Positions 12,215 through 43,110 of a DNA stretch of 64,000 nucleotides are shown in pieces. Numbering within the stretch: position 1 is the first letter of the stretch; the number at the start of each line of letters is the position of its first letter. This DNA is from Squalus acanthias. Lineage: Eukaryota. A model generated the notes under the pieces. It did no database searches. It had not been told where the DNA came from and saw only the letters and a list, made by a program, of their open reading frames with translations. A program made the translations under genes and the position numbers. The stretch covers positions 5,642,001 through 5,706,000 of the forward strand of contig CM059432.1 in the NCBI GenBank assembly GCA_030390025.1, in the 5' to 3' direction.

Positions 12215-12289
12215 TTATAATTTCTGGTCCAAGGGTCCATCCACAATAGGCCCCAATATAGCCACAGCTTCAATCTCAACTCGGCCTCC
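12215..12289 (-). CDS. RIDA: RIDA exon 6 (GGRVEIEAVAILGPIVDGPLDQKL-stop)
   Basis: Acceptor ttttgcag|; TAA stop at 12217-12215. Confidence 0.95.
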   Translation of the reverse strand, partial: GGRVEIEAVAILGPIVDGPLDQKL

Positions 12290-12452
12290 CTGCAAAAAAG
12301 AAAAAAACAATTAAATCAGACAATTGAAGCAAATATTTGATCTGCAGACATGTCAGCAGCATGGACTCTATAACTCATTACATCCCACTAAATTCTGATG
12401 GGACCAGAAAGCTTTTAGAGACGTATAGAATTTACAGCACAGGAACAGGCCA

Positions 12453-12722
12453 CCCTGCTTCTCTTCCATGGCTGTGTCCGTGCCCAGGTGTCCCTGGGGA
12501 GGAAGCGTGCGGCGTCCGCCAGTATGCTTGAGGCTTTCTGCGACCGGTGGGCACCGGAGGGGGTCGTCGACGTGGACGATAACGTCGTGCTTTAATTTGA
12601 TACGGTTCCTTTGGTTTTATTTATAATTTGGAGTTTATTGTTTGCGCCCCTTTAATAAGGGGACACTTTTGTTAAAATTGATTTCTTTCGATGATCCTAA
12701 TTGGCACTTAAAAAAGAGTAAA
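12453..12722 (+). mobile_element. Tx1/L1-clade LINE 3' end fragment inside a CR1 tail
   Basis: Reads LLLFHGCVRAQVSLGRKRAASASMLEAFCDRWAPEG...stop, then a T-rich UTR and A-rich tail; flanked by acaggc on both sides. Confidence 0.55.
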
Positions 12723-13119
12723 GACAGGCAATTCGGCCCAACTGGTCCGTGCCGGTATTTATGTTCCACATGAGCCTCCTCCCACCCTGCTTCATCTCAC
12801 CCCATCAGCATGGGGGGGAGAGACACGTGTGGGTTGAAAGAAACTTGCAAATTTAATCTAAAAGCAAAATATTAGAGATTGAAAGCAAGATCAATGCAGA
12901 AAATTGAAACACTAATTTTTGTTCATGGAGATTGAATTTGCACCGTATTCGTAATATTCTGAGGACAGAGTTACAAGGCAAGAATGTTTGATTGTGGAGA
13001 GTGTGTATCCAGGCTGCATTCCTTCTCAATCTTTTAACATTTCCCAATTCTTTCCCTGTGAACCAATGCCTTGGATCAGCTCCCCAACACCAACACACCA
13101 AACGCCCAAAGCAACGTAC

Positions 13120-13175
13120 CCGTGGCAATGCAGCGACCTGATAGGCAGCTCTGGCTGGAAAATTGGTTTTAAAAT
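13120..13175 (-). CDS. RIDA: RIDA exon 5 (YFKTNFPARAAYQVAALPR), containing the catalytic Arg
   Basis: Acceptor ctttctcag|, donor CGG|gtacgt; 56 nt. Confidence 0.96.
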
Positions 13176-13199
13176 CTGAGAAAGAAACACAAATTTACT

Positions 13200-13790
13200 G
13201 ACATAGAAATTTACAGCACGGAAAGAGGCCATTCGGACCAACTGGTTTATGCTGCACACGCGCCTCCTCCCACCCGGCCTCATCTATCTATCAGCAGATC
13301 CTTCTTCCATTTCTTTCTCCCTCATGTGTTTATCTAGCATCCCTTTAAATGCATCTATGCTATTCTCCTCAACTACTCCATGTGGTAGCGAGTTCCATAT
13401 TCGAACCACTCTCTGGAGTAAAGAAATTTCTCCTGAATTCCTTATTAGATTTATTGGTGACCATCTTCTATTTATAGCTCCTAGTTTTGGATTCCCCCAC
13501 AAGTGGAAACATATTCTCTACGTCTACCCTTTGAAAGCTCTTCATAATTTTAAAGACTATTATCAGTTCACCCCTCAGCTTTCTCTTTCCCAGCCTGTTC
13601 AATCTTTCCTGATAGGTATAACCCCTCAGTTCTGGTATTATCCTAGTAAATCTTTTTTGCACCTTCTCCAATGCCATTCTATCCTTTCTGTAATATGGAG
13701 AGCAGAACTGTGCCCAGTACTCCAAGTCTAACCAAGGTTCTGTACAAGTTTAACATAACTTCTCGGCTTTTCAATTCTATCCCGCTGGAA
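13200..13790 (-). mobile_element. CR1 LINE 3' fragment
   Basis: EYWAQFCSPYYRKD..ALEKVQKRFTR and QRVVRIWNSLP motifs. Confidence 0.85.
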
Positions 13791-14028
13791 TAAAATAAAA
13801 AGACAAATGCGTCGGTCAAGGAGAGCAAATGCGTTTAACACAAACTGAAATAACTCCGACTGATGTAGAGTTCTGATTACCAGCAGGAAAGCCTTTCAGT
13901 ACTACAGCTAAACATAACTGCAAAAGTATCACTTCAGCATTCACCATCATGAATTGTAATTCGGGGAGTTATTATTCCCCACCGGCCCCCCCACCCCCCA
14001 CCAAAACAAACACGAGATCCACACTCAC

Positions 14029-14097
14029 ATTGCTTGTAAACATCGTTAACACAGTTGAAGTCGTTGATGTCTGCCAGCAGAACGGTTGTTTTTACAA
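14029..14097 (-). CDS. RIDA: RIDA exon 4 (VVKTTVLLADINDFNCVNDVYKQ)
   Basis: Acceptor ccttttag|, donor T|gtgagt; 69 nt. Confidence 0.96.
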
Positions 14098-14444
14098 CTA
14101 AAAGGAAGAAAGACTTGCATTTAGATAGCGCCTTTCACGACCTTAGGACGTCCCAAAGCACTTTACAGCCAATGAAGCACTTTTGAAGTGTGGTCGCTGC
14201 TGCGATGCAGGACATAATTTTTTTATTTTTTTATAAACATCTTAATAAGTGCTCAAAACTAAAACTACTGGCGACGAGAGGGCCAGTACATTAACAACTC
14301 AAAAAGCTTCATGCACTTTTCTTTAAAATTATATCTAACCTGCCAAAGTATGCTTGAAGTAGTGTTGTCTGCCACATTGTGGACTAAATTCAGCACTGCC
14401 ATACAGAGTACATCACTCCGTTAAGTACATCTTTTAAATTAAAC

Positions 14445-14660
14445 TAAAATAGAAACAGAAAATACAGGCAGCATCTGTGGAGAGAGAAACAGAGTTAACG
14501 TTTCAGCTCGATCACCCCTCCAGTTCTGATTGAAAGCTCATCGAGCTGAAACATTAACTCTGTTTCTCTCTCTCCACAGATGCTGCCTGACCTGCTGAGT
14601 ATTTCCAGCATTTTCTGTTATCATTTCAGATTATCCAGCATCCGCAGTATTTTGCTTTGG
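14445..14660. mobile_element. Inverted pair of Penelope-derived terminal repeats
   Basis: Minus copy 14445-14515 adjoins plus copy 14521-14660 of the hammerhead-bearing unit. Confidence 0.7.
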
Positions 14661-14858
14661 TCTTAAATTAAACTTCCGAGTTCTAGCCAAAAGTAGATTT
14701 TGACCATATTCCCTACTAAACACAAATCATTCTACTCTTGTTTTTTTTAAAAAAAAAGTTATTTCCTCTCCGCTTTGGTCTTCCTGATTTATGATAAAAG
14801 CTCTCCTGTTGCTGGCTGTGCGCGGCAAAAGGAGGAATGCTACATTTTAGCCTCGTAC

Positions 14859-14913
14859 CATTCGTGTAGTCACAGTTTGCAGCCTTGAGGATCTCTCCCA
14901 TGTTGATGAGCGC
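14859..14913 (-). CDS. RIDA: RIDA exon 3 (ALINMGEILKAANCDYTN)
   Basis: Poly-T acceptor ttggcag|, donor G|gtacga; 55 nt. Confidence 0.96.
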
Positions 14914-15036
14914 CTGCCAAAAAAAAAAACACAAATTAGTTCAGGCATTCTTGTTAAAAATGTGCATTCCCTCTCCCCCCCCCCAACCGATGAAAGCAGA
15001 GATAAAAATGCAGACAAAGCACCACGGTTCATTTCA

Positions 15037-15354
15037 CAGAATCACAGAATCCCCACAGCGCAGATAGAGGCCATTTCGGCCCATCGAACCTGCACCGACA
15101 CATATCCCACCCTATCCCCGTAACCCCACGTATTTAATCCCCCCCTAACACGAAGGGTCAATTTATCATAGCCAAATCAACCTAACCCGCACATCTTTGG
15201 ACTGTGGGAGGAAACCGGAGCACCCGGAGGAAACCCACGCAGACACGGGGAGAATGTGCAAACTCCACACAGACAGTCACCCGAGGCCGGATTCGAACCC
15301 GGGTCCCTGGCGCTGTGAGGCACCAGTGCTAACCACTATGCCACCGTGTTGCCC
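15037..15354 (-). mobile_element. tRNA-derived V-SINE (HE1-like) with a CR1-derived tail
   Basis: Minus strand: head ggtggcatagtggttagcactg...gggttcgaatccgg (A/B boxes), V-domain gtggagtttgcacattctccccgtgtctgcgtgggtttcctccggg, tail gatgggccgaaatggcctc...(attctgtg)n. Confidence 0.85.
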
Positions 15355-15960
15355 ATTTCTAGAGGAATAGAATTGAAAAGCAGGGAAGTTATGTCGAACT
15401 TGTACAGAACTTTGGTTAGACCACAGTTCTGGCCTCCATATTACAAAAAGGATACAGAGGAACTGGAGAAGGTGCATAAAGATTCACAAGGATGACACCA
15501 GAACTGAGAGGTTATAAATATCAGGAAAGACTGAACAGACTGGGGCTCTTTTCTCTAGAAAATAGAAGGCTGAGGGGTGACCTGATAGAGGTCTTTATAA
15601 TGAAGGGATTTGATAGGGTAGACACACCACTTATTTGGGGTGGGGGGGGTGGGGGGAGGAGTTCAAAACCAGGAGCCATAAATACAAGATGGTCAACTAA
15701 TAAATCCAGTAGGAAATTCAGGAGAAATGTCTTTACCCAGAGAGTGGTGAGAATGTGGAACTCACCATCACATGGAGTACTTGAGGTGAATAGCATAGAT
15801 GCATTTATGGGGAAGCTAGATAAACACATGAGGGAGAAAGGTATAGAAGGTTACGCTGAAAAGGTGAGATGAAGAGGGGTGGGAGGGGGCTCGTGTGGAG
15901 CATAAACACCGGCACGGACCAGTTGGGCCGAAGGGCCTGTTTCTGTGCTGTAAATTCTTT
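15355..15960 (+). mobile_element. CR1 LINE 3' fragment
   Basis: ORF 15492-15872: LGLFSLENRRLRGDLIEV, FTQRVVRMWNS. Confidence 0.85.
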
Positions 15961-16339
15961 GTCTGAACTGCAGGCCCCGTAAAATATTCAATGGCATTTC
16001 TCCACCTAAAGCATCCAGTGGTGCTTTGGAAAAGGAAATGGCTCAGCATAATTTCTATCACAAAAGCATCACACAGAAATGATAACTTTGTGGTTTACAA
16101 ACATGGCTAATAAAGCTATGCTAATAATTTTCCAAGAGTGACTGCTCCTCTGTCAAATGGTTAATGTTTTTGCCACTGTCAGAATCGAGTTTAACATGGC
16201 CCACTACTGGTGGTGCACACAGAACAGCACAGACTCTGGCTAAATTTCTCCCTGGCCAGCTCTGTAACCTGAATTCCAGGTACTACTGTGGAGTCGGCCT
16301 TACTGTGCCCCGTCCCAGCCGTGGTTGGCACCGAACGAC

Positions 16340-16910
16340 CATAGGAAAAGGAGGAGGCCATTCAGCCCCTCGAGCCTGTTCCACCATTCAATGAGATCAT
16401 GGCTTATCTGCGACCTAACTCCATATACCATCCTGTGGCCCAAATCCCTTAATACCTTTGGTTGACAAAAATCTATCAATCTCAGATTTAAAATTAACAA
16501 TGGACCTGAGATCAACTGCCCTTTGTGGAAGAGAGTCCCAAACTTCTACCACCCTTTGTGTGTAGAAGTGTTTCCTAATTTCACTCCTGAAAGGTCTGGC
16601 TCTAATTTTTAGACTCTGCCCCCTAGTCCAAGACTCCCAAACCAGCGGAAATAGTTTCTCTCTATCGACCCGATCAGTTCCCCTTAATATCTTTGAAAAC
16701 TTTGATCAAATCACCCCTTAACCTTCTAAATTCTAGGGAATACAACCCTAGTTTGTGTAATCTCTCCTCGTAATTTAACCCTTGGAGTCCAGGTGTCATT
16801 CTGGTAAATCTACACCAATATATTAATCCAAGGTTAATATATCCTTCCTACGGTGTGGTGCCCAGAACTGCTCACAGTGCTCCAGGTGTGGTCTAACCAG
16901 GGCTTTGTAT
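16340..16910 (-). mobile_element. CR1 LINE 3' fragment
   Basis: [19 protein letters not shown] motif and CR1 3' tail. Confidence 0.8.
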
Positions 16911-17732
16911 GAGGAACACAGGTACATATTATCCCACAATAGCAGAATGTTAGGAGCTGGAAGACTCAATGGCATTTCGCCACCAAAAGCAGCGCAGCCG
17001 GTGTCAGAGAGAGCAATTCTAACAAATGCTGTTTGAAAAAAGAAAAAAAGGGTTGAAAATGCAGGAGATGCACAAGTCCAGCAGCACCTGTTGAGAGAAA
17101 GATACGGAAGGATTATAATCAAAATGTTAACCTATCTTTTCTCGTCTCGTGCCGACAGGACTGCTGTGTACTTTTCTGTATGAAAGAAATGTTGAAAATT
17201 GAGGAGATTCTTCAGTACTCAGGAGGCGATAGGAATGGGAGAAGGGAGTTTGTACCTAAACCTGTTATAATTATTTAGTTTAGCGGTCAGATTCCACCAC
17301 TAGGAACTGTACGTTGTATCTCCCTCTCTGGTACACTTGTGTACCCTCCTCTTTGCCAAACATTGCGTATACTTTTTTGCGGATGTCTGTTATAATCACT
17401 CTTTCACACTCACTCACACACACGAGTAATAAAACAAAGAAAAGAAAATGAAAGAAAAAGGAAGGAAGGAAGGAAGGAAGGAAGGAAGGATTGCAGGGGC
17501 TAGAGTCTTGTGATAAGGAAGAATGTATGTAGACTGTAGAAGGACCCGTTGGGTCAAATGGCCTGTTCTTTTTCCCTGCCTTCCTATGTACCATTTCTGA
17601 CGGACAACTCATTGTAGTTGGAAGATTTCAAGTGGCCCTAAAGAACTTTGTGTTCGAGAGGAATTGGACATCACAATATTGGGAGGTCATCTACATCAGA
17701 ATACCGGGTGGTCGTTGATCTCATCTGCCACA

Positions 17733-20700
17733 CGTAGAATCGTAGAATCTTACAGCACAGGAGGCCACCATTCGGCCCGTTGTGCCTGTGCTGGCTCTTT
17801 GATAGAGCTGTCCAATTTAGTCCCAAACCCCAGCAAATTAGTTCTCTCCAAATACGTGTCCAATTGCCTTTTGAATGTTCCTATGGAATCTGATTCGACC
17901 ACCCTTTCGGGTAGTGAGTTCCAGATCATAACAACCTTTTGTGTGAAATATTTTCTCCTCATTTCCCCTCTAGTTCTTTTGCCAATTATTTTAAATCTAT
18001 GACCTCTGGTTACCGACCCACTTTCCAGAGGAAGTAGTTTCTCCCTGCTTGCTCTATCAAAACCCCATAAAATTTCAAATACCTCTATTAGGTCTTCCCA
18101 TAACCTTCTCTGCTCCAAGGAGAACAATCTCAACTTCTCCAATCTCTCCACATAACTGAAGTCTCTCATCCCTGGTATCACCCTGGTAAACTGCCTATGT
18201 GCCCTCTCCAAGGCCTTCACATCCTGCCTAAAGTGTGGTGCCCAGAATTGGACACAATACTCCAGCTGAGGCCTAACCAAGGATTTGTAAATGTTTACTG
18301 TGACTTCCTTGTTTTTTGTATTCAATGCCCCTACTTACAAAGCCAAGTATCCCAGACGCTTTCTTAACCACCTTAATCAACTTACCCTGCCACCTTCAAA
18401 GATTTGTGAATATGCACACCCAGGTCCCTCTGCTCTTGCATCCTCTCAGAATAGTACCATTAAATTATACTGCCTCTCCATATTGTTTCTCCAAAAGTGC
18501 ATCACTTCACACTTATCCACATTGAATTGCAACAGCCATGTGTCTGCCCATTTCACCAGTCTGTCTATATCATAGAATCATATAATTTACAGCACAGAAG
18601 GAAGCCATTCGGCCCATCGGCCCATCTTGTCCGTGCCGGCCGACAAAGAGCTATCCACCCTAATCCCACTTTCCAGCTCTTGGTCCGTAGCCCTGTAGGT
18701 TACGACACTTCAAGTGCCCATCCAAGTACTTTTTAAATGGGACGAGGGTTTCTGCCTCTACCACCTTTTCAGGCAGAGAGTTCCAGATCCCCACCACCCT
18801 CTGGGTGAAAAGATTTCTCCTCAAATCCCCTCTAAACTTCCGACCAATTACTTTAAATCTATGCCCCCTGGTTATTGACCCTTCTGCTAAGGGAAATAGG
18901 TCCTTCCTATCCACTCTATCAAGGCCCCTCATAATTTTATACACCTCAATTAGGTCTCCCCTCAGCCTCCTCTGTTCCAAAGAAAACAACCCCAGCCTAT
19001 CCAATCTTTCCTCATAGCTAAAATCCCCAGCCCAGGCAACATCCTCGTAAATCTCCTCTGCACCCTCTCTAGTGCAATCACATCCTTCCTGTAATTTGGT
19101 GACCAGAACTACACGTAGTATTCTAGCTGTAGCCTAACTAGTGTTTTATACAGTTCAAGCATAACCCCCCTGCTCTTATATTCTATGCCTCGGCTAATAA
19201 AGGCAAGTATCCCGTATGCCTTCTTAAGTTGTGGGCAAAATGCTGGAGTCCATCATTAAGGATGAAATAGCGGAGCACTTAGCAAATGGGGACAGGATAG
19301 GACAGAGTCAACATGGATTTACAAAGGGTAAATCGTGCTTGACTAATCTATTGGAATTTTTTGAGGGAGTAACTGGTAAAATAGATGGGGGAGAGCCAGT
19401 AGATGTGGTGTACCTGGACTTCCAAAAGGCCTTCGATAAGGTCCCACATAAAAGATTAGCAGGGAAAATTGAAGCTCATGGGATAAAGGGGAAAGTATTG
19501 ACGTGGATAGAGAACTGGCTGTCAGATAGAAAACAGAGAGTTGGAATAAACGGCTCATTTTCTGAATGGCAGGCAGTAACAAGTGGGGTACCACAGGGAT
19601 CTGTCCTGGGTCCCCAGTTGTTCACAATTTACATTAATGACCTGGATCAGGGAGTCAGATGCAGCATTTCCAAATTTGCAGACGACACTAAACTAGGAGG
19701 GGGGGTGGGCTCAGAGGAGGAGACCAGGAAGCTCCAGAGCGATTTGGACAGACTGGGTGATTGGGCGGATAAATGGCAGATGCACTATAATGTGGACAAG
19801 TGCGAAGTTATCCACCTTGGGTGCAGGAACGGGAGGGCAAATTATTATTTAAATGGCAATAAATTGGGAGAGGGGGAAGTACAGAGAGACCTGGGTGTTC
19901 TTGTACACCAGTCACTGAAGGCGAGCATGCAGGTGCAATAGGCGGTCAAGAAGGCAAACGGTATGCTGGCCTTCATAGCAAAAGGGTTGGAATACAGGAA
20001 CAGGGATACCTTGCTGCAGCTGTACAGGGCACTGGTGAGACCACACCTCGAGTACTGTGTACAGTTTTGGTCGCCTCATCTGAGGAAAGATGTTCTTGCC
20101 ATGGAGGGGGTGCAGCGGCGATTCACCAGGCTGATACCAGGAATGGCGGGATTGACCTATGAGGAGAGACTATGTAGTTTAGGGATGTACACACTGGAGT
20201 TTAGAAGATTGAGAGGGGACCTCATAGAAGTGTATAAAATTCTGACAGGTCTAGACAGACTAGATGCAGAAGGAATGTTTCCCTTGGCGGGTGAGAACAG
20301 AACTAGAGGACATAATTTAAGGATAAGGGCTAAACCATTTAGGACAGAAATGAGGGTGAATTTCTTCACTCAGAGGGTGGTGAACCCGTGGAACTCATTG
20401 CCACAGAGGGCAGTGTACGCCAGCTCATTAAATATATTTAAGAGGGAATTAGATATATTTCTACAGGCAAAAGGGGTTAAGGGTTACGGAGAGAAGGCGG
20501 GGACAGGATACTGAATTGGAGGATCAGCCATGATCTCATTAAATGGCGGAGCAGGCTCGAAGGGACGGTTGGCCTACTCCTGCTCCTATCTTCTATGTAT
20601 CTATGTATCTATGTAACCACCTTATCTGTCTGTCCTGCTACCTTCAGGGATCTGTGGACATGCACTCCAAGGTCCCTCTGATCTTCTGCACTTCTCAGTA

Positions 20701-22300
20701 TCCTACCATTTATTGTGTATTCCCTTGCCTTGTTAGCCCTCCACAAATGCATTACCTCACACTTCTCCAGATTGAATTCCATTTGCCACTGTTCTGCCCA
20801 CCTGACTAGTCCATTGATATCTTCCTGCAGTCTGCAGCTTCTTCTTTCATTATCAACCACACGGCCAATTTTTGTATCTGCAAACTTCTTAATCATACTT
20901 CCTACATTCAAGTCCAAATCATTGATATATACCACAAAAAGCAAAGGACCCAGTACTGAGCCCTGTGGAACCCCACTGGAAACAGCCTTCCAGTCATAAA
21001 AACACCTTTCGACCATTACCCTTTGTTTCCTGCCTCTGAGCCAATTTTGGATCCAACTTGCCACTTTGCCTTGGATCCCATGGGCTTTTACTTTCGTGAC
21101 GAGTCTGCCATGTGGGACCTTATCAAAAGCCTTGCTAAAATCCATATAGACTACATCAAACGCACTACCCTCATCGACCCTCGTTACCTCCTCAAAAAAT
21201 TCAATCAAGTTAGTCAGACACGACCTTCCCTTAACAAATCCATGCTGACTGTCCCTGATTAATCCCACCACCGAGGTTAGGCTGACTGGCCTGTAATTAC
21301 TCGGTCTATCCCTTTCTCCCTTTTTAAACAACGGTACCACGTTAGCAGTCCTCTGCCACCAGACCTGTAGCCTGCTGAAGTCTGCTAGTATTCTGCTCAC
21401 TATTTATTACGTTGCCAAGTTTTGTATCATCCGCAAACTTCAAAATTCTACTCCCTATAGCCAAGTTCATGTCATTGAAGGCAGCAGGACAGGTAGATAA
21501 GGTGGGTAAAAAGGCATATGGAATACTTATATTCTATGCCTCGGCTAATGAAGGCAAGAGCAGGGAGGTTATGATGGAGCTGTACAAAACGCTAGTTAGG
21601 CCACAGCTGGAATACTGTGTGCAGTTCTGGTCGCCACACTATAGGAAGGATGTGATTGCATTGGAGAGGGTGCAGAGGAGATTCACCAGGATGTTACCTG
21701 GGCTGGAGCATTTCAGCTATGAAGAGAGACTGGACAGGCTGGGGTTGTTTTCCTCAGAGCAGAGAAGGCTGAGGGGGGACCTGATTGAGGTGTACAAAAT
21801 TATGAGGGGCATAGATAGGGTAGATAGAAAGGAACTTTTCCCCTTAGTAGAGGGATCAATAACCAGAGGGCATAGTTTCAAGGTAAGGGGCAGGAGGTTT
21901 AGAGGGGATTTGAGGAAAACCTTTTTCACCCAGAGGGTGGTTGGAATCTGGAACTCACTGCCTGAAAGGGTGGTAGAGGCAGGAACCCTCACAACATTTA
22001 AGAAGCATTTAGATGAGCACTTGAAACGCCATAGCATACAAGGCTACGGAGCAAGTGCTGGAAAATGGGATTAGAATAGAGAGGGCTTGATGGCTGGCAC
22101 GGACACGATGGGCCGAAGGGCCTCTTTCTGTGCTGTATAACTCTATGACTGTATATACAAGAAAAGTAATGGTCTTAATACCAACCCCTGCGGGACCCCA
22201 CTGTCTGTATCTCTCCAGGTCATCCGTTCACCACTACTCTCTGCTGTCCTTTTAATACCACGTGCTTCAATTTCCCAAATAAGGTCATTATAAGGTACTT
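17733..22300. mobile_element. Nested stack of four CR1 LINE fragments in RIDA intron 2
   Basis: A(-) 17733-18570 + 21371-21476 + ~22155-22300; B(-) 18571-19227 + 20614-21370; C(+) 19228-20613; D(+) 21477-~22152. RT motifs QHGF, DFxKAFD, SGVPQGSVLGP and KFADDTK. Confidence 0.9.
19231..20514 (+). pseudogene. CR1 ORF2 (reverse transcriptase) 3' part, 5'-truncated, with a single in-frame stop
   Basis: ORFs 19231-19941 and 19963-20514 share a frame, separated only by TAG at 19939-19941; tail (ATCTATGT)n near 20600. Confidence 0.9.
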
Positions 22301-22934
22301 CATCACATAAGGTGCAGTAGAAAGGTTTTCAAAGAAGGATTAATTTACGGAGTGAATATTGATAAGTGTACCATTTACAAAATCCACCGCCGCAATTCAC
22401 CAAGGCTTCTTCGACAGCACCTCCTAAATCTGCAACCTCTGTCACCTAGAAGGACAAGGGCAGGAGGCGCGGGGCAATGTTTCCTGTAAACTGCACGGCC
22501 ATGCAACGGTCCTGGGGACCCGCACAGCCGGCTTTTCAATTAAAAAACCGCACATGCATGGTATTTTGAATGGGCCGGAATTATTATTATTATTTTTTTA
22601 AACAGGGAACATTGCGCATGGGATCACCTCCAAGTCACACACCACCCTGACTTGGAAATATATCGGCCGTTCCTTCACCGTCGCTGGGTCAAAATCCTGG
22701 AACTCCCTCCCCAACAGCACTGTGGGAGCACCTTCACCACACGGACTGCAGCGGTTCAAGGCGGCGGCTCACCACCACCTTCTCAAGGGCAATTAGGGGC
22801 GGGCAATAAATGCTGGCCTTGCCAGCGACGCCCACATCCCATGAATTAATATTTTTTTTTAAAAACAGAGTCAGTCAATGAGCTGAAGGTGGGGGCAGGA
22901 CTTGTGGTTTTAAATTAGAGTCCCCAGATTATTT

Positions 22935-23195
22935 CTTCAGCAAAATGCTGCTGCCTTCTATCTTATCACAGACCTTCCCTTTTGTTCTTTCATCCCCTCC
23001 CCCCTTTCCCAGCCCCTACACTTGCGTAAAAATCTGTTCCATTTCCTGCTATTTTTCCAGTTCTGACGAAAGGTCATCGACCTGAAACGTTAACTCTGTT
23101 TCTCTCTTCACAGAGGCTGCCTGACCTGCTGAGTATCTCCAGCATTTTCTGTTTTTATTTCAGATTTCCAGCATCTGCAGTATTTTCTTTTTGTA
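22935..23195 (+). mobile_element. Penelope-like element 3' end / pseudo-LTR
   Basis: Pyrimidine-rich leader, hammerhead and conserved downstream unit; homologous to 39830-40075(+) and 45615-45930(-). Confidence 0.7.
23059..23095 (+). ncRNA. Minimal type I hammerhead ribozyme motif in a Penelope-derived repeat (intact core)
   Basis: AGTT-CTGACGA-A-AGGTC-ATC-GACCT-GAAA-CG-TT-AACT: stem I AGTT/AACT, CUGANGA core, 5-bp stem II, GAAA, palindromic ACGT mini stem III. Confidence 0.75.
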
Positions 23196-23197
23196 TT

Positions 23198-23405
23198 CGA
23201 GTCTCTTCGCCGGGAGCAAGCGGAAGCCAAGCGCAAGCAGCGCACGTCAACCCAAGCACCCCACCCACCCGCCCCTTCAACCACTGTCTGCCCCACCTGC
23301 GACAGAGACTGTAGGGCCCGCACTGGACTCATCAGTCACCTGAGAACTAATTTTTAATGTGGAAGCAAGTCATCCTCGGTTCCGAGGGATTGCCTAAGAG
23401 AAAGG
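23198..23405 (+). mobile_element. RTE LINE 3' end fragment
   Basis: Closely matches 36255-36450 (gagtctcttc...ggaagcaagtcatcctcggttccgaggga..gcctaaga). Confidence 0.8.
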
Positions 23406-24956
23406 TTGTCATTGACAGATTGGGACACCCTACAGTTAAAATCGGTCCCACTGCGCGTCCAATGGACAATCGGGCCACAAAATACAGAGAAGCTCAATCA
23501 CAGAAGTCTGATTTTTTTTTTGATAAACTGGAATAAGTTAGATCTACAAAAGATTCGAAGGAGAGAAAGTGGGACTTTTAAAAAAAAAAATCATTTTAAC
23601 ACATTTCAAATTCTTGCTCTGCTCCAGCAAGAAATTTCTACCAATTTCTTTTTTTTGGACGGAGGCGGAAATAGGAAACCATCAGAAAGTCTGTTAGTGG
23701 TTTTAAGTTTCAATGTTATTGTCTTCTGATGTAGCTTTGCCCCAGATCTTAGGGGTGGGTGAGGTTAAAAAAACAAACTCTCTCCACAGGAGATTTTCTT
23801 TTTTTTGTTGCTGCTGGAGTTCAACTGTTGTACGCAAATCTACCTGGGACCCTTTAATCTGTTAATAAAAATATTTTCCCCACTCATATTGCATTTTCGA
23901 GTACAAATCAATTAAAGTCGCTACAGCTTTCTAAAGTGAAGATTAATTTATGTTAAAGTCTTGGACTGCAAAATGTTTCGTAATTAAAGCACAGGCTGCA
24001 TGCCCAAACTTGCAAATATCCTTCAAAGACTGGGTCATGGATCACAATGATTCAGAAAGTGTGCCCGCATTACCGTGCATTGGCAATGTTCATCAATGCT
24101 TCACGAAGCAAAAGGGATATGAACCATGAAAAGCATGCTCCGATTTCATCAAACCTAGCCTGGTAGGTCCAGTCAAAAAACAGTGATTTTCTCTTTTAAC
24201 TGATTAGCTGTGTTGTAGATATCAATAGAATACCAATGGTTTACAGAGAATAACCCACTTGTATCGTGGTCAACAGAACTCACTTACATTTGGGAGCATT
24301 TGCGAGCTTCCTTGTCTATCGGCCTTCAACTACCGACACATAGAGCTTAGTTTATACCCACAAACGCACTACAGATGCAACTGTCTCACTTCTGACTAAA
24401 GAGGGTTAAGGGTTGCGGTGAGAAAAGAGTGTCAAACATCACCATGCGTATTGAATCCACACATCCTCAGCTGCGGAAAGATTACTGAAGTGCTGCCACC
24501 TGCCTGCGTGATCCGGTAACCGAGCAAGCACGATGCAGAGATCTCTCCGATTATTGTTGTTCCAGAAAGCAGAAACCAGGAAGCATTCCAAGTCTACACC
24601 AGCAAAAGTTAGGACTTGGCTGATCTATCGCCCGTACGATGCAAAGAGCTGCAATGTGAACTGGAACCCTTCTACTGAGAAACCTAGGCGAAGAGGTGAG
24701 GCCAGTGGAGAAGGACAAGACATCGACTGAATAAAGTCGGAGGAAAGACGTGGTTAAATCAAGAAGTAGTGACACACAATTAAAACCAAATAAATTGCTG
24801 GAGGAAGGGCTGAGTGAAAGAAGCAAGATGCCCACAGTATTAAGGTTCTGGGAATGATTGCACAATGAAGAGCAGTCGGAGCAATATATACAGTATATAT
24901 AAAAAGTACAGTATGATTTGGCGAAGATCTTGTTTTGAATGACGCTAAGACATTAC

Positions 24957-25062
24957 CTGCGTGGTTTCCTGGGTTGCTCCTCCATTCACAAGCTGCCCAG
25001 TTGCAGGGTCCATCCCCAGCTGCCCGGAAATGTACAGGGTTCGATCCACCACCACAGCTTGG
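24957..25062 (-). CDS. RIDA: RIDA exon 2 (QAVVVDRTLYISGQLGMDPATGQLVNGGATQETTQ)
   Basis: Acceptor cctacag|, donor CAG|gtaatg; 106 nt, phase matches exon 1. Confidence 0.96.
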
Positions 25063-25564
25063 CTGTAGGATAAAATTACAAAAGCACAGAATGGTCATAG
25101 GCCTACAGCACACCACAGAATAGGAAAGTAAGCAGAGGCTCTAAGCTCTGGAATTCTCTCCACCTCTCTCCCTCTAAGAAGCTACTTAAAACCTACCTCT
25201 TTGACCAAGCTTTTGGTCACCTGTCCTAATATCTCCTTACGTGGCTTGGTGTCAAATCTTGTTTGATAATCGCACCCGTGAGCGCCTTGGGACATTTTAC
25301 TACGTTAAAAGGCGCTACATAAATGCCTTTGAGACAGCTCTCCCAACTTTGGCAGTAGTCCCCAGATGTTAGTGATGGGGGCTTTGAGGGTCGATAGGGT
25401 TGTGTGCGCCTTTGTTGTGTCCAAAATCGATGCCTAACAATTAATGCTAGTGGACTGTTATATGCTTCCACTGAATTATATCTCTTAAAATTGTATCGCC
25501 ACACATGCCAGGAAGCTCTGATTGAATCCACAGTCTTATCTTAGTTACAATGAATATATAGGCT

Positions 25565-26678
25565 GGCCCGGATTTTGCGTTAATAATAACGGTGAGGCCG
25601 TCAGCGCTCACGATTATTGTGCAGTAAATCGAACAGCAACTTCTGGAGTACGGACGTGCAGTTAAATGTGGAAATCCAGAAGTTGCGGTCCGAGTTACCC
25701 TGCTCCTCCACAGGCTGCGCTCTTATACGTGCAACGGCATGAAGTTGGGTTACTTACCCACTAAGCACGCCAAAAAAAGTTAGGGCTGGTGCATTCAGGA
25801 GTAAGTGAATTTTTAACGTCAAACAAACTCTCTGGCCCATAAAATTTAATTTTACAAGCGTGGAGTCTCATTCCTTTAGAAGCTAATTAGTGTTGGAGAA
25901 TTTTTTTTAAATTTTAAAATTTTCTTTTACTTTTTCTGTCTGTCTCTTTTATCTCTCTCTCTTAATCCCATCTGTCTTTCCCAATCTTTCTTTCGCTTTT
26001 TGTACATGATTTAAATCTAATTTATACTTCCTAGTTTAGACTCTGTGTCTCAGTGAGGATTATTTTTTTAAATTCGTTTATGGGATGTGGGCATCGCTGG
26101 CAAGGCCAGCATTTACTGCCCATCCCTAGTTGCCCTTGAGAAGGTGGTGAGCCGCCTTCTTGAACCGCTGCAGTCCGTGTGGTGATGGTACTTCCACAGT
26201 GCTGTTGGGGAGGGAGTTCCAGGATTTTGACCCAGCGACGATGAAGGATCGGCGATATATTTCCAAGTCAGGATGGTGTGTGACTCAGAGGGCAACTTGG
26301 AGGTGGTGGCGTTCCCATGTGCCTGCTGCCCTTGTCCTTCTAGGTGGAAGAGGTCGCGGGTTTGGGAGGTGCTGCCGAAGAAGCCTTGGCGAGTTGCTGC
26401 AGTGCATCTTGTAGATGGTACACACTGCAGCTACGGTACGCCGGTGGTGGAGGGAGTGAATGTTTAAGGTGGTGGATGGGGTGCCAATCAAGCGGGCTGC
26501 TTTGTCCTGGATTCCTCAATCTGATTGGTTGAAGAGCCTCGCTGTTTCTTGTCCTGCTCACAGATGTCACAGACTAGAGCAAGTCTCCGCTTTAAAGCCC
26601 ACAAAAACTCCGTGGGCAGCTGTCAGTGAGGTGAACGGAGAGAGCCGTTCCTTCGCCGCTGACCGCAAAATCAAGGCC
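25565..26678 (+). mobile_element. Non-autonomous TIR element (GGCC-ended, Harbinger-like), interrupted by a LINE fragment at 26070-26510
   Basis: Ends GGCCCGGATTTTGCG / CGCAAAATCAAGGCC; both termini homologous to the reverse complement of 63023-63744; partial copy ends at ~30441. Confidence 0.6.
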
Positions 26679-27129
26679 AATATAGCTCAGAAATGAAAAA
26701 GGGCCACTTTGGTAAAGTGACTGTGGAACTGAACCCCAGAACAACAGGAGATGGGGAAGAGAAAAGTACAAAGAAATATTGAATAATGAAAGTAAATGAT
26801 TAAATAAAATGATACATCTATAACTTGCACTCCTGGACTATGTCAGCAATTTGTTACTGATCACATGGCACTGGCAATTGAGCAGCTTTGTTAAACAGCT
26901 ACTTGTTATTTAATGGCAAATAAATAGACAGGCCAAGAATTGATATAACTAACATTGCAAAATCTGCACTGTGCACATTGCACAATTCCAAATTTATTCG
27001 ATTTGTGAGTCACCTGCAAAACCCAATTAAAACACAGTTTTACTGCTTTAAAAAAAAACTCACACCAGGTAGGTCCAATTGTAACTGAGGGCAGCAAGGC
27101 TGTTCCAGCAATTTAAGCCCTATTGTGAG

Positions 27130-27263
27130 CAATGTTCCCTGCCAGTTTTTTTTTGGGTGTGCGGCTCCTTTAAGGGTCTGCGCAGCCCATTCTAACTTCC
27201 CCGCATGCATGGTTTTCTCATTGAAGAAACCGGCAAATCGGCCTGCGCAGGAGAGGAACATCG
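27130..27263. mobile_element. hAT-type MITE
   Basis: TIR CAATGTTCC...GGAACATCG; flanks ATTGTGAG/ACTGTGAG (7/8 TSD). Confidence 0.7.
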
Positions 27264-28626
27264 ACTGTGAGCCTTTAATACCATGCTACCTTACAGGGCT
27301 CCTGCTGACTGCGGTCCCAACTTTAGCAGCTGCACTGCAAGGTAACTGACGCAGCAATTTACGCGGGATTTTCCACTAGCACCGAGGGCAGCTGCGGAAT
27401 ACTTCTTCCCCAATATGGGTGGCCATATGCTGATAACACACAAACTAGGAGAACACACAAACTAGGAGACAACTACGAGAACAACTTGTATTTATATAGC
27501 ACCTTTAACGTAGTGAAACGTCCCCAGGCGCTTCACAGGAGCGATTATCAGACAAAAATCAGACACTGAGCCACATAAGGAGATATTAGGACAGGTGACC
27601 AAAAGCTTGGTCAAAAGAGGTAGGTTTTAAAGGAGCGTCTTAATGGAGAGAGACGTAAAGAGGCGGAGAGGAAATTCCAGAGCTTAGGGCCCAGGCAGCT
27701 GAAGGCACGGACGCCGATGGTGCAGCGATGGAAATCAGGGACACGCAAGAGGCCAGAATTGGAGGAGCGCAGAGATCATCGTGCACCATATTTCCCCCAT
27801 CATCTGCGTCCTAGCGATGCTGTGATCCTGGTGATCAGTGTTGCCATTAAAAGAAAACACAAAATTAACAGCAATCTTAAGACGCTGGTTGAAGGTTTAC
27901 CGTTACCTTGCTGATGGATAGTAAGGAGCTTAAAAATCACAGGTGGTTAAGGTGTGCTATTGGGAAAAATTGGTCAGTTCAGATCATCAACCATCAGAAC
28001 AGAGCAAATGTTAACAAACATGATTCAGACACGCAGCACGTGCAGTCCATCCTGACATTTTAAAGAGATTAATATCTGCAACGGGTTATCAATTTTTTAA
28101 AACTATTAATGTGCAAGCCCTGCTGTCATTGTATCTTTGTTGCATATCACTAAAAGGCAGGGGGGCGGGGGGGGGGGGCGGAGTTAGTACAAGATTAGGA
28201 CACAAGACCAGGATACTTATAGGTACAATGAGATGGGGGGGAAACTCCTTCTTGCAAAGTTAAATCACAATTAAACTTAGTATAGTTCCTCAGTTTTGTT
28301 TTCATCAATATTTTAAAAATAAACATGATGTTCTCAAAACTCAAGTTGTAGGAAATCATGTCTAGCAGTTCCACAGCCATTCCAAACTCAAAAGATCATT
28401 GCTGCACAAGTGTGATATTTTACCATTTCCAACGCCAGCCACGCTATTGCCAATTTAGTGCTGAATTGGGGGGGGGGGGGTTTAATGCTGTGGCCTATGC
28501 TCACCAAGCGTTGCATTCAGACTACCCAAACTCATTCCACATAGAGCCCTTAACAGCCAAAGGAGTAAATTTTCATCCGATCAGCCAGATCTCTCCAAGT
28601 TAAAAACCACTGCCTTGCCATCGTCA

Positions 28627-28629
28627 GCC

Positions 28630-28671
<42 letters not shown>

Positions 28672-29087
28672 GTGGGTTCAAACCCCACTCCAGAGACTTG
28701 AGCACAAAAATCTAGGCTGACACTCCAGTGCAGTATTGAGGGGGTGCTGCACTGTCGGAGGTGCCAGTGTTTTGGATGAGACGTTAAACCGAGGCTCCGT
28801 CTGCCCTCTCAAGTAAAAGATCCCATGATATTATATTGAAGAAGAGCAGGGGAGTTCTCCCCGGTGTCCTGGCCAATATTTACCCCTCAATCAACTTCAC
28901 AAAAAAACCCAGATTATCTGGTCCTTATCACATTGCTGTTTGTGGGAGCTTGCTGTGCGCAAACTGGCTGCCACGTTTCCTACATTACAACAGTGACTCC
29001 ACTTCAAAAAGTACTTCATTGGCTGTAAAGCGCTTTGGGACGTCCTGAGGTCATGAAAGGCGCTGTAGAAATGCAAGTCTTTCTTTA
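28627..29087 (+). mobile_element. tRNA-derived DeuSINE (SacSINE1-like), full length
   Basis: A box gtggctcagtgggtag, B box gggttcaaaccc, Deu-domain ggatgagacgttaaaccgagg...gaagaagagcaggggagttctccccggtgtcctggccaatattta, L2-like tail. Confidence 0.85.
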
Positions 29088-30084
29088 AGAGAAGGCCCAT
29101 TGAGTAACTCAGTAATAGCTCAGGAGCCTGTGCGACTAATGATGTAGTCGCTCTGGCATGCAGGCGTCAGAGCACGTTATGGACTGGTCCAAAGGTTACA
29201 GGATCAGGGAAAGCTCCGCATAGCTATGTCTGGATTCTCCTGAATTGATAGATAATTCTCCAGCTACGAGGAATCAGGACAATTATCAGCAGTTCAATTT
29301 GACAGGCTACAGAACCCACTACGCTGTAGAACAGAAATCAGAACAGGAGGCAAAATACTGAGTTTTAACAATAGAGAATATAAAGTAAATCTGACCATTA
29401 CAATGTTGCAACAACTTGTATTTATATAGCGCCTTTAACATAGTAAAACATCCCAAGGTGCTTCACAGGAGCGATTATCAAACAAAATTTGACACCGAGC
29501 CACACAAGGAAAAATTAGGGCAGGTGACCAAAAGCTTGGTCAAAGAGGTAGATTTTAAGGAGCATCTTAAAGGAGGAAAGGGAGGCAGAGGCGCGGAGAG
29601 GTTTAGGGAGGGAATTCCAGAGCTTACACCCATAAACCAAAAGTACAGTACTTCAATATAACCCCAACACACTAATCTGTGTCTGCCTACAGTACCTGTA
29701 AATGCCAAGTCTGAGTGGGGCTTTGGGAGTATATGCAAAAGTCCGCTTTGTAGCCATATTGTCCCCGCTTACAGTTTTCTGGATCAGTTTAGTATTAATA
29801 GCAACAAAGTGACCTCTAGAACATGCTATTGCCAGAACATCGATAGCAGCCTTTATCACTTTACGCAACATTGCTCTTGGTGTGAAAATGTCTGAATTAT
29901 ACGACTCTTCCATTGCCAAGATTATTTTGCAGAAAATGATTTTTTTTTGCTAAACTGCTCCAGTTTTTCCTTTTCTTTTTGTCTCTTCTCTCTCAATCCC
30001 ATCTTTCTCTCTCTTTATTTTGCTTCCTGTACATGATTTTACATTGAATTAAATATTTTAACCTGGTTTAGACTGCGTCTCAGT

Positions 30085-30221
30085 CAACATTCCCGCTAAG
30101 CCTTGCACTTCTCTGCCGGTCCCGCGCAGCCCGGGACCAGCTTTTCTAATGTTAAATTTTGCGCAGTTCGCGAAACTGTGAATGGGCCGTGCACCCCAAA
30201 AAAAAGTTAGAATGAACATTG
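30085..30221. mobile_element. hAT-type MITE with a perfect 8-bp TSD
   Basis: GTCTCAGT at 30077-30084 and 30222-30229; ends CAACATTC...GAACATTG. Confidence 0.75.
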
Positions 30222-30511
30222 GTCTCAGTAAGGATTCGTCAATCGGATTGATTAATGAGATGCGCAGTTGCTTGCCCTGTTCACAGGTCCCAGAGTTCCA
30301 GAGTTCCTGTAGAGGGCGCTGGTTCGGCTCTCTAATTACCAGAAATCACAGCGTAAAATTCCACAGAAATTCTGCGGGCAAGTGTAAGGGCAATGAACGG
30401 TGAGCGCCAGGTCGTTCACCGCTGACCGCAAAATCCAGGGCATCGAGTCTCCATCTGCCCAATATGGAGTGCACTCTCTCCTCATAGGACACACCCCATT
30501 GTATGTGTCAT

Positions 30512-30803
30512 ACGTGGCTCAGTGGGTAGCACTCTTGCCTCGGAGTCATGAAGGTTGTGGGTTCAAGTCCCACTCCAGGAGACTTGAGCACAAAATAAAA
30601 ATCAATATTTATCACTCAAACAATATCACTAATACAGATTATCTGGTCATTATCACATTGCTGTTTGTGGGGGGTTGCTGTGCGCAAATTGGCTGCTGTG
30701 ATTCTGACATTACAACAGTGACTTCAAAAATACTTCACTGGCTGTAAAGTGCTTTGGGACGCCCTCTAGTTGAGAAGGGCGCTATAGAAATGCAAGTCTT
30801 TTT
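30512..30803 (+). mobile_element. DeuSINE with internal deletion
   Basis: Same head and tail as 28627-29087; central part missing. Confidence 0.75.
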
Positions 30804-31016
30804 ACACTTGAAAAGTCATGCATTGACTGCGAAGCGCTTTAGGACGTGCAAACGACACGGAAGGCACTACAGAAATGCAAGCTCCCTCTTTCCTAACACA
30901 GACTTCATTTTTTTGAAAGTTTCCATGATCTGTTGAGAGGTGAGTGGGGAAGGTGATACAGTCCTGGCTTGTTGCTCCAGAGGACCTTGTACTGTGCCCA
31001 TATGTATTTCTTCACT

Positions 31017-31053
31017 TCACCTGACGAAGGAGCAGCGCTCCGAAAGCTTGTGA
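31017..31053 (+). ncRNA. Minimal hammerhead ribozyme motif, second Penelope family
   Basis: TCAC-CTGACGA-A-GGAGC-AGC-GCTCC-GAAA-GC-TT-GTGA, followed by AATAAA (caaataaagctgttggactataacc). Confidence 0.75.
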
Positions 31054-31365
31054 TTTCAAATAAAGCTGTTGGACTATAACCTAGTGTTGTGCGACTTCTC
31101 ACTTTTGTGCAACAATTAGGCATAGCTACTTCTTTTAAAGCAACAACTTGCATTTTTATATAACGCCTTTCAGGATGTCTCAAAGTGCTTTACAGACAAT
31201 GAAGTACTTTTGAAGTGCAGTCACTGTTGCAAGGTAGGAGTTTTAATTGAAGATGCACCCAACGTGCAAAAAAAAAAGTTCCATATGTTTAAAGGAGATT
31301 GCAATCTATATCATTGTTAGAAACTATGCAATCTCACTCCTCTGGAAGCTGCCACCAGAATTTAC

Positions 31366-31430
31366 CTATAGGGACCGATTGCTCCCGGTGCCTTGCTGGT
31401 GCTGATGATCCTCCTCACTAGCGCTGCCAT
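31366..31430 (-). CDS. RIDA: RIDA coding exon 1 ([22 protein letters not shown])
   Basis: ATG at 31430-31428 with an in-frame upstream TGA at 31484-31482; donor AG|gtaaa; 65 nt. Confidence 0.96.
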
Positions 31431-32150
31431 TCTATCCGGACAAGGTTCGCAAGCTGGACGGCCACCTGACCCACCGACCCTTCAGTCCCAGAATAGCGAA
31501 TAGTGCGCGCATGCGACATCGGGTAGGTAAAGGGGAGGGGGGGAGCCGCGCTGCACCTCGGGATTCGTAGTTCCAACCGGACACATCTCCCATAATGCCG
31601 CCGTGGCGCAGCCGCAGTGCGCCGCTCTTCCACCCGGAGAGAAGGGGGCGTGCGCGCCTGTTTGATTGGCAGCGAGCGGCTCGCGATCCCCCACGTGATT
31701 GGCGGTTTGTCCCAGCCCGCTCGCTCAGTGTGCAGTTGGTTGACTGCAGTCGTTCCAACACTTTCCTGTGAAAGTGTCGTTGGAGGCTCGGTAAGTTTCT
31801 TTGACAAGTCACAATGTGACCGGGACCCGGCGGAGAGTTTCGGATTTAAAAAAAATAAAATATGAATGTTGCAGCGTCCCGTGTGGGGGGTAACTGTTGA
31901 CCACGAGTGCATAATTGCCATCGAGACGCACGCGCACTTCCACCGCATCGAGGTCGCGCATCGCCGCGGTGCACCGGGTTTGCGCACGCGCAATGCCGCA
32001 AGGCTTCGGGTTCGCGCACGCGCACTTTCACCGCATCGAGGTCGCGCACGCGCATTACCGCGGTGCGCCGAGGTCGCGCACGCGCAGTTTGCGCCCTGTA
32101 GACGCCTCCTTAACTCTTCGGCTGCCGGTCCTTGCCCGGAGTCCGCCTTC
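31431..32150. promoter_or_regulatory. CpG island and bidirectional RIDA/POP1 promoter
   Basis: CpG-dense stretch between and just beyond divergent first exons. Motifs: NRF1-like GCGCATGCG 31507-31515, ZNF143-like motifs 31560-31574 and TCCCATAATGC 31588-31598, GC box ~31645, ATTGG (CCAAT) at 31665 and 31698, TCGCGA 31681, CACGTG 31692. Confidence 0.85.
31720..31790 (+). other. POP1: Probable non-coding POP1 exon 1 (start approximate)
   Basis: Strong donor CG|gtaagt at 31790/31791 inside the CpG island. The POP1 ATG exon begins only 2 nt after an acceptor, so an upstream exon is required. Confidence 0.7.
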
Positions 32151-32515
32151 TGTGTGTGTGTTAGTTATTCACACTTATTTCCAGTATGTAAATTTTGACG
32201 TTTGATGCCCCTGCAAAGTTTGAAACTTGGTTTCCACATGAGGTAATTCTGAAGGCCGTGCCTGATCATCTTACCTTGCCCATTAGTCACGTGTCGCTTT
32301 AAAGAGCGAGTCTTGGCGAGCACTTCTTCTGTGGAAGGCTTCACAGATCCTGTTCTCTGCATGTGGGTGCCCTTTGGGAAGGGGGGGAGGGGCGATGCAA
32401 ATCCAGGTCTGAGTGTGGTTAGGTGCATAGTTGGGACTGACATATGAAAGACAACTGAACTTTAAGCAGTCTTTAACAAAAAGTGGCTAGCAAATATTCT
32501 GTTGCTCAATTGTCT

Positions 32516-36920: not shown

Positions 36921-38780
36921 TACAGAAGTTCCACAACCTCCTGAAGAAATTATTGGAGCCGTAGGAAGAAGTTTAAAAATAACTTTTGTGAAGCAACTGC
37001 ATATACACAAGTAACAATGCCTTGTGTGCAGGTTAACTTTTTATTTGCTTTGCTCACTTCTGAATTGACTAGGGAAGCTCTATAAAAGAGTGATAGCAAA
37101 TTTAATGACTTCACCTCTTGCTCAGGTGAGCGGGAGTAATCTCTTGTTCTGCTGCCCATGTCCTAACACGCACCAAGTCCCGTTCACCCATCACCCGTGT
37201 GCTCACTGACCAGTTAAGCAATGCCTTGATTTTAAAATTCTCCTCGTTTTCAAATCCGTCCCTCCCTATCTCTGTAATCTCCTCCAGCCCCACAGCCCTC
37301 CGAGATCTCAGCGCTCCTCCAATTCTGGCCTCTTGAGCATCCCTGATTATAATCGCTCAACCACTGGTGGCCGTGCCTTCAGCTGCCAAGGCCCTAACCT
37401 CTGGAATTCCCTCCCTAAACCTCTCCGCCTCGCTACCTCTCTCCTCCTTTAAGATGCTCCTTAAACCCTACCTCTTCAACCAAGCTTTTGGTCACCTGCC
37501 CTAATTTCTCCTTACGCAGTTCAGTGTCCGATTTTATTTGATAACGCTCATGTGAAGTGCCTTGGGACGTTTTACTATGTTAAAGGCGCTATATAAATAC
37601 AAGCTGTTGTTGTTCAGCCTGATGTGTTTACCACTTCTCTCTTCAGTATCAGCGCCACCTTGGCACTGCTATCTGCAGCATGAGTGCAAACCCACCAACT
37701 TTATAACTCACTTGCAACAATTTCCAACACACCAAGGGTTTTACATTATTGCAAAGGTCAGCGGTGAAGTCTGCAAAGTACAAATAAAAAAAAACTAATT
37801 CTATTTATCTTGTTCCCCAGTCTTCCCAACCCTGGATTGCTGAGTGTTCACCAATGTTTGCCTGAGATGACATTTTTAAATCTCACATTGAAGGATTAAG
37901 TCCTCTACATAAAGTCCTTGCTTAGCTTCTATGACAACGGAATACTGCAGAGATTTTTTTGGTGCAAGATTGATGCCTTCTGTATGAAGCAAGGGCAGAG
38001 AGCCATGTTGTTGTTGTTCCATCTTATTGCATAATTTTATTAAATGTTCTTTAATTTTTTTTAACTCTGCATTGTGCCTAGAAGTTTATTTGTCTTAAAG
38101 ATGCTGAACCCCTCTCTCTCTTTGTTGGCCTGCAATCATTATACAGTAAATTCCATGATTTTTAAATTTATACAAATGTTTTGCGACAGGATATTATTTT
38201 GACACTTTTCTAATTAAGCATTCGGTAAATTCTAATGTATATGATAGCACACCCCTTTTATCTTGTGCAACAAGATTGTGTTATGCTTAATTTTTGTATA
38301 ATTAACAAAAAATTACTACGGTGTATCTATATTCATCCATGTTTCAGATTTTTTTTCATTCTTGGGATGTGCGTGTCGCTGGCAAGGCTGGCATTTATTG
38401 CCCATCCCAGTTGCCCTGCGAAGGTGATGGTGGGCTTCCTTGCTAAACCACAGCAGTCCATGTGATGATAACTGAGTGGCTTGCTAGGCCACCCCTGAGG
38501 GTATTTAAGAGTTGACCACGTTCGTGCAGGACTGGAGTCACACAGGCTGGACCGAGCAAGCCTCTCAGTAGTCCACTACAAAAAAACTGCAGCGGTTCAA
38601 AAAGGTGGCTCACCAGCGCATTCTCGAGGACAATTAGGGGATGGGCAATAAATGCAGGTCTTGCCAACGACGCCCACATCCCGTGAATGAATAATAAAAA
38701 AGAAGTTCATTATGTATTTCTTGTGTGTAAATTTTGTTGTGAAATTTAATTAATTAAAATTTTTTTTTTTTTGTAAAGCC

Positions 38781-43107: not shown

Positions 43108-43110
<3 letters not shown>

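Follow-up and report, generated by a model that had tools for sequence, protein, structure and literature searches.

The closest described system is the minimal hammerhead ribozyme (min-HHR), a class defined by Cervera and De la Pena in 2014 (PMC4209133). The available parts of that paper report thousands of dispersed vertebrate copies derived from truncated Penelope-like elements (PLEs), with opposite-strand pairs among them and 4,000-9,000 motifs in coelacanth and Xenopus; min-HHR monomers were inactive and dimers weak. The Fig. S3 and Table S1 lists in these parts contain no cartilaginous fish. According to an excerpt of a review (PMC6765202; for hammerheads see also PMC6155905), Lunse et al. 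placed min-HHRs in the pseudo-LTRs (pLTRs) of PLEs. For the Poseidon element of Anolis carolinensis (PAc; Frangieh et al. 2024, PMC11167929, in part) the hammerhead cleaves only with protein present and is dispensable for insertion in vitro, and public data held no corresponding RNA ends. Inverted 5' copies and an optional tail of 30-40 bp are hallmarks of PLEs in the accessible sections of PMC8557442 and PMC11167929. Type I hammerhead retrozymes are reported from the one chondrichthyan sampled in a preprint (bioRxiv 10.64898/2026.07.22.740005, in part), and an intronic expansion of Penelope-like elements from the whale shark (10.1101/443036, in part). A literature search of limited coverage found no paper dedicated to PLE hammerheads of sharks.

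The motif analysed here belongs to this known class: PLE hammerheads have been described since 2014, and this one comes from a hugely amplified chondrichthyan element. The window, i.e. the whole 64,000-nucleotide stretch of the Squalus acanthias assembly under study, holds 13 hammerhead-bearing copies of one 140-320 bp repeat (pieces of 110-320 bp, found by BLAST, mismatch scan and alignment), referred to as family 1, and one copy of a second family. Judging from the sequence evidence, we regard it as very probable that the motif is a Penelope-like pLTR hammerhead whose fold is kept in master elements, and that the copies inserted in the introns of RIDA and POP1 are inert. The features of the window are the following.

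20-159 (+): decayed family-1 copy with G8 changed (mismatch scan, alignment)
12266-31430 (-): RIDA (Pfam PF01042; PDB 1oni_A)
14445-14664 (pair on opposite strands): head-to-head pair of a partial copy, 14465-14516 (-), and a broken copy from 14522 (+) (alignment)
22953-23194 (+): 5'-truncated pLTR fragment with the 23059 motif and the long 3' end (self-BLAST, loose contig ends)
23059-23095 (+): intact minimal type I hammerhead (core pattern and descriptor)
31017-31053 (+): family-2 minimal hammerhead, single copy (descriptor)
38781-61400 (+): POP1 (Pfam POP1_N; PDB 6ahr_B)
39890-40068 (+): pLTR fragment with an intact hammerhead at 39968-40004 and the short 3' end (BLAST, alignment, descriptor)
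43080-43861 (+): copy truncated within the core, with an expanded TC tract and its tail at 43755-43861 (BLAST)
45608-45927 (-): longest pLTR fragment in the window, its hammerhead at 45680-45716 broken (alignment, descriptor)
49827-49937 (-): copy truncated within the core, with a 9-bp target duplication (alignment)
59237-60552 (+): internally deleted Penelope-like element with a broken hammerhead at 60461 (protein and sequence matches)
62180-62424 (pair on opposite strands): block A, head-to-head pair of a broken hammerhead, 62255-62291 (-), and an intact one, 62325-62361 (+) (alignment, descriptor)
62814-63018 (pair on opposite strands): block B, inverted sibling of A, with an intact hammerhead, 62842-62878 (-), and a broken one, 62912-62948 (+) (self-BLAST)

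The 37-nt unit from which the preliminary description started is present at 23059-23095 (+) as first described. It consists of a 4-bp stem I, the core CUGACGA, an extra A at 23070, a 5-bp stem II with a 3-nt loop, GAAA and the palindromic ACGU, with the cut predicted after the U at 23091. The proposed minimal type I anatomy (core, 4-bp stem I, extra A, loopless palindromic stem III) is thus confirmed at 23059, and all 12 positions named for the recurrent unit were recovered by BLAST, mismatch scan and alignment. The core pattern with up to three mismatches matched nine times in the window and never in 100 shuffles. A descriptor search, as the preliminary description had proposed, was run on the 64-kb window with a generic minimal-hammerhead descriptor and returned five motifs; 100 dinucleotide shuffles all returned none. 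Four of the five are family 1, at 23059(+), 39968(+), 62325(+) and 62842(-), and the fifth, at 31017-31053(+), is of unrelated sequence. The strict descriptor is accordingly passed by four of the 13 family-1 copies and by the sole family-2 copy, and it is in these that the CUGANGA...GAAA...NUH core is intact. Three copies had been called intact (23059, 39968, 62842), and all three pass; the copy at 62325, called near-intact, is scored intact as well, with a 4-bp stem II and a 5-nt loop, and the 31017 motif had been missed. All five motifs use an extra base after the core, and in all of them helix III lacks loop 3 and is palindromic (ACGU in family 1, AGCU in family 2). The family-2 motif is antisense to RIDA and starts ~315 nt from the beginning of intron 1 of that gene. 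An Rfam scan of the window gave 12 matches at E up to 5, none of them to a hammerhead family; the miRNA matches at 14476-14578 were rejected, as they represent the inverted pLTR pair. Elsewhere in the window, a near-perfect 88-nt inverted repeat at 9157-9244, unrelated to the hammerhead repeat, gives a weak mir-192 model match far under the gathering score.

Every feature of the window motif is covered by the consensus and the examples listed in the available part of PMC4209133. Both are of type I, with CUGANGA followed by one extra nucleotide, GAAA and a palindromic loopless helix III; also shared are the 4-bp helix I, the U-rich 5' flank, the dispersed single copies and the close opposite-strand pairs. 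A departure from the published consensus is seen at the 10.1-11.1 pair, which is G-C in over 80% of min-HHRs and A-U in the family-1 copies of the window, whereas family 2 has G-C. A-U is also found in D. willistoni and in Latimeria 2, so G10.1-C11.1 is a consensus and not an absolute trait of the class as that paper presents it; A10.1-U11.1, U17 and 3-nt loops all occur in its Fig. S3.

The 13 copies comprise the 12 that the preliminary description had counted in 64 kb and a partial one at 14465-14516(-). They correspond to only about ten insertions, because several form inverted pairs, and two further pieces consist of tail only (59249-59338(-) and 59349-59452(+)). Nine of the 13 are broken or truncated. 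Head-to-head arrangements occur four times, as three hammerhead pairs and one inverted tail pair; thus an inverted, 5'-truncated copy beside the 5' end, a PLE hallmark, is found at 14445-14664, 59237-59452, 62180-62424 and 62814-63018. Four insertions are bounded by target duplications, of 14, 12, 10 and 9 bp respectively: block A (at 62164 and 62424), the 14445-14664 pair within a RIDA intron, the 45608-45927 copy antisense in a POP1 intron (at 45598 and 45928) and the copy at 49827. The 39968 copy has a 7-bp flanking match at most, and 23059, block B, 43080 and 59237-60552 showed no duplication; the copy at 23 lay outside this test. Loose contig ends in runs X1, X6 and X9 fall on the 22953-23194 fragment at 23160, 23186 and 23194, followed by T-rich sequence. 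These alternative 3' ends lie 26 and 34 bp apart and so match the optional 30-40 bp tail of PLEs (PMC8557442, PMC11167929, both in part); the short and the long type both occur among the aligned window copies. In the copy at 43080 a short TC tract has grown to a microsatellite of ~660 bp (43112-43773) that parts the hammerhead from its tail, and CR1-like fragments flank this copy on both sides.

One copy is fused to coding remnants. The order in 59237-60552 is an inverted tail at 59249-59338(-), a tail at 59349-59452(+), an ATG at 59482, open reading frame (ORF) remnants at 59633-60067, 60159-60251 and 60344-60430, and a pLTR fragment; the copy at 60461 begins 30 nt after the last remnant. Remnant 59633-60067 has ~40% matches to two shark proteins, P0002 (E ~1e-19) and P0004 (E ~1e-20). 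Three of its five HMMER matches were kept as credible relatives (Chiloscyllium, Hemiscyllium, Amblyraja), which point to a cartilaginous fish as the host, and P0001, a repetitive protein, and P0005, an Mrr-domain protein, were dropped as unrelated. Word-based protein searches with this remnant gave no match, and Pfam recognised none of the three PLE remnants of the window that were tried. The remnants 60344-60430 and 60159-60251 match the N-terminal ORF of a metagenome locus, L005 (E=7.8e-06 and 0.004), whose next, overlapping ORF contains RVT_1 (E=5.4e-05) and GIY-YIG (E=0.001), both under the curated Pfam cut-offs. This reverse transcriptase (RT)/GIY-YIG ORF ends 132 nt ahead of a minimal hammerhead, and an inverted hammerhead lies on its 5' side. 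No RT or GIY-YIG remnant of the family-1 element was found in the window by matching to L005 (E<0.05). The link to a full element is accordingly indirect. The Penelope-like origin put forward in the preliminary description is nevertheless supported: one copy joins onto coding remnants with matches to an RT+GIY-YIG element, and inversions, target duplications and alternative 3' ends are all present. Within the first remnant, a 15-bp in-frame tandem repeat occupies 59610-59738 (8.6 copies, 98% match). The element resembles PAc in three respects: its pLTR hammerhead lies close to where the ORF begins, RT has two start sites, which give the optional tail of 30-40 bp, and the targets are AT-rich. 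In PAc, however, the ORF starts within stem II, whereas the ATG of the window element (59482) is ~30 nt past the tail and more than 100 nt downstream of the position of the motif.

A metagenome scan for minimal hammerheads found at least 123 eukaryote-like loci. Among the matches listed, L005, L006, L037, L043 and L112 carry two minimal hammerheads per contig in opposite orientation, and L005/L006 represents a near-complete RT+GIY-YIG element. By eye, none of the loci listed was assigned to the shark family; they represent other families and therefore bear on the class only. Viral contigs gave no match.

Is the fold maintained? The numbering of hammerhead positions, and the rules on which of them tolerate change, are established. 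Among the 40 variants listed of 88 in the contig comparison, ten fall in the 37-nt unit, five of them CpG transitions, including one at G8 (7-9% in the three non-RNA runs, X1, X6 and X9). The remaining five comprise C>A at N7 (24% in X9), A>G at 10.1 (22-49% of depth), A>T in loop II (11-22%), U>C at 17 (0.4-9%) and A>G at 1.1 (3-7%). The hammerhead model tolerates each of these; it would tolerate 23 of the 105 possible non-CpG changes (P ~0.0005, or 0.002 with transition weighting, for the 40 of 88 listed). Since the listed non-CpG variants are all tolerated, the active element appears to keep the fold; for 40 of 88 variants this evidence is suggestive of maintenance in the active lineage, and the other 48 could include a core variant. 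Family 2 points the same way: its stems I, II and III all differ from those of family 1, every pair and the palindrome are kept, and all 11 core positions are shared by the two families with their different stems. In other families, searched with a pattern free of stem I, a stem I of at least 3 bp is found in 46 of 71 distinct flank pairs among the matches listed, compared with a mean of 12.5 and a maximum of 23 in 2,000 shuffles, which supports the class and not family 1. Conservation of core and paired positions over flanks, which the preliminary description had expected, is thus seen at the family level, in the tolerated variants and in family 2; among the window copies it is not significant. 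There, non-CpG changes affect two of 110 core positions (1.8%) versus 40 of 868 in the 3' flank (4.6%; p=0.22 in a low-power test), and nine of 295 in core plus stems (p=0.31 versus flank). This comparison covers 14 of 15 aligned pieces, leaving out 62912, the sibling of 62255, despite a core change, and counts substitutions but not indels, by which three further copies are broken. The core tends to be more conserved, a trend that is not significant and is compatible with weak constraint.

The repeat is very abundant. The ~10 insertions per 64 kb amount to roughly 150 per Mb, and a 300-bp stretch of the repeat, the final ~40 bp of which belong to a different repeat, matches 74,218 contigs in X1, 84,542 in X6 and 88,952 in X9, from three organisms. 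These contig counts are not a copy number; they show a very large family common to the three organisms, as the preliminary description had suspected from the window. Family 1 probably exceeds the 4,000-9,000 motifs of coelacanth and Xenopus. Run X18 is RNA by guess only and is made up of contigs, so that neither its 3,271 matching contigs nor an empty table of molecule ends speaks for or against expression.

The host genes were identified from their exons. For RIDA these are 31368-31430 and 13114-13173 (PDB 1oni_A) and 24966-25064 (Pfam PF01042); short keywords mark what we take to be further RIDA exons near 14899, 14083 and 12270. POP1 exons lie at 45233-45448 and 46925-47179 (POP1_N) and at 61299-61400 (PDB 6ahr_B, E=2.3e-06), and 38781-38939 (E=0.2) is the probable first coding exon. 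POP1 probably continues past 61400, and copies beyond that point are counted as intronic on this assumption. The two genes stand head to head around a GC-rich region, 31430-32200, the probable bidirectional promoter of both, with an imperfect 32-bp repeat at 31955-32024. Directly 5' of the probable first POP1 coding exon, at 38349-38701, lies an inverted fragment pair of another abundant short repeat. Decayed LINE RT frames at 16.3-22.2, 33.7-36.3 and 53.2-57.5 kb are presumably CR1-, RTE- and L2-like. The intronic location given in the preliminary description applies to 12 of the 13 family-1 copies; the copy at 23 is downstream of the last RIDA-like peptide (~12270) and so probably outside both genes. 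Six of the 12 are sense and six antisense to their host gene.

How the element might produce this pattern can be outlined from the PLE literature. The active element most likely has the order ORF end, ~200 nt, hammerhead, tail and next ORF start. Reverse transcription would begin at more than one point of the pLTR 3' end and mostly stop early or invert; the fragments that this would leave are observed, at 110-320 bp and nearly all with the hammerhead. By analogy, cleavage after GUU would most likely happen in the RNA of the element itself, and only in a dimer formed through the ACGU palindrome or with the aid of protein. Selection would act on master elements, and inserted copies would be dead on arrival and then decay; those in RIDA and POP1 introns most likely have no host function.

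One alternative is that host pre-mRNA is cut by the intact sense copies, either dimerised in cis or in trans or with help from PLE protein where the element is expressed, so that the family would be a latent cleavage system throughout the genome with effects on host transcripts. The sheer abundance would suit it (ten insertions in 64 kb, 74,218 contigs in X1), as would the Anolis hammerhead, which cleaves when PLE protein is present (PMC11167929, in part). The best candidate is 39968, an intact copy that appears to lie in sense orientation within a POP1 intron and whose stem II is predicted to form (p 0.82-1.0). Yet the pairing probability of stem I is 0 in local context for both sense copies (39968 and 62325), and 62325 loses stem II too, because blocks A and B, 87% identical over 223 bp, are the arms of an 870-nt inverted repeat (predicted fold -426.7 kcal/mol); full pairing with antisense copies is predicted for 62325. 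By nearest-neighbour energies, which are crude and ignore the tertiary core, the core of an isolated monomer pairs with the cleavage strand (-9.1 kcal/mol, compared with -5.9 for the open hammerhead), and a dimer in its active form (-9.7) lies far above the dimer minimum of -22.9 kcal/mol. The inactive monomers and weak dimers of PMC4209133 and the lack of RNA ends at the cleavage site in the Anolis data of PMC11167929, as far as these sources are available, argue in the same direction. Nor, in the window, are intact sense copies biased or lost: two of six sense and two of six antisense family-1 copies are intact, 23059 being antisense to the RIDA pre-mRNA, and with family 2 three of the five intact motifs are antisense and two sense. 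With nine of 13 copies broken or truncated and decay not significantly different from neutral, the reading of the dispersed copies as a latent ribozyme family of consequence for RIDA and POP1 is not supported, and we consider host cutting very unlikely. A bolder version, that the very many palindromic half-hammerheads, intact and sense, in the pre-mRNAs of this genome are cut in trans when Penelope protein or pLTR RNA is abundant (in germline or under stress) and so shape shark introns, is a long shot; if true, it would mean a switchable, transcriptome-wide cleavage system in shark pre-mRNAs.

As for blocks A and B themselves, they lie 390 bp apart in inverted orientation within 62164-63022 and share a private deletion. 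In POP1 pre-mRNA they are predicted to form a hairpin with arms of ~220 bp, probably an ADAR substrate. A search for a POP1 exon in the hairpin loop (62.4-62.8 kb) covered one of three candidate frames and gave no POP1 match.

The repeat could also be an independent, non-autonomous SINE or retrozyme that uses PLE machinery instead of representing PLE ends. Nearly all copies are short and free of coding sequence, and the private deletion and junction shared by blocks A and B imply at least one round of copying of a short composite. Animal non-LTR retrozymes, moreover, stem from pLTRs (bioRxiv 10.64898/2026.07.22.740005, in part), and share with the window repeat the type I hammerhead and this PLE ancestry. 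Retrozymes are, however, head-to-tail tandem units, whereas the window copies are dispersed, variably truncated or head-to-head, and the unit is in none of the seven tandem arrays of the window. The 5' ends differ between copies, and in one copy the tail leads directly to the ORF start (59482). We regard this explanation as highly improbable. A vestigial or accidental likeness, with the motif never cleaving and kept for another role such as a protein-binding hairpin or promoter element, could point to the missing Rfam match, a fold z-score of only -1.68 (14 of 200 shuffles as good), the unimpaired in vitro insertion of Anolis hammerhead mutants (PMC11167929, in part) and the Naiad PLEs that lack hammerheads (PMC8557442, in part), but is scarcely credible when two families that differ in their stems keep 11 of 11 core positions, stem I pairs so far above the shuffle mean in the other families listed, and relatives cleave in vitro.

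The preferred reading remains that of a Penelope-like pLTR hammerhead with inert intronic copies. The finding would be of greater importance only if inserted copies cut host transcripts, to which our analysis lends no support. What it does is to add cartilaginous fishes, with a very high copy number, to the range of a described class; this is of use in annotating repeats and gives studies of hammerhead covariation a large natural data set.
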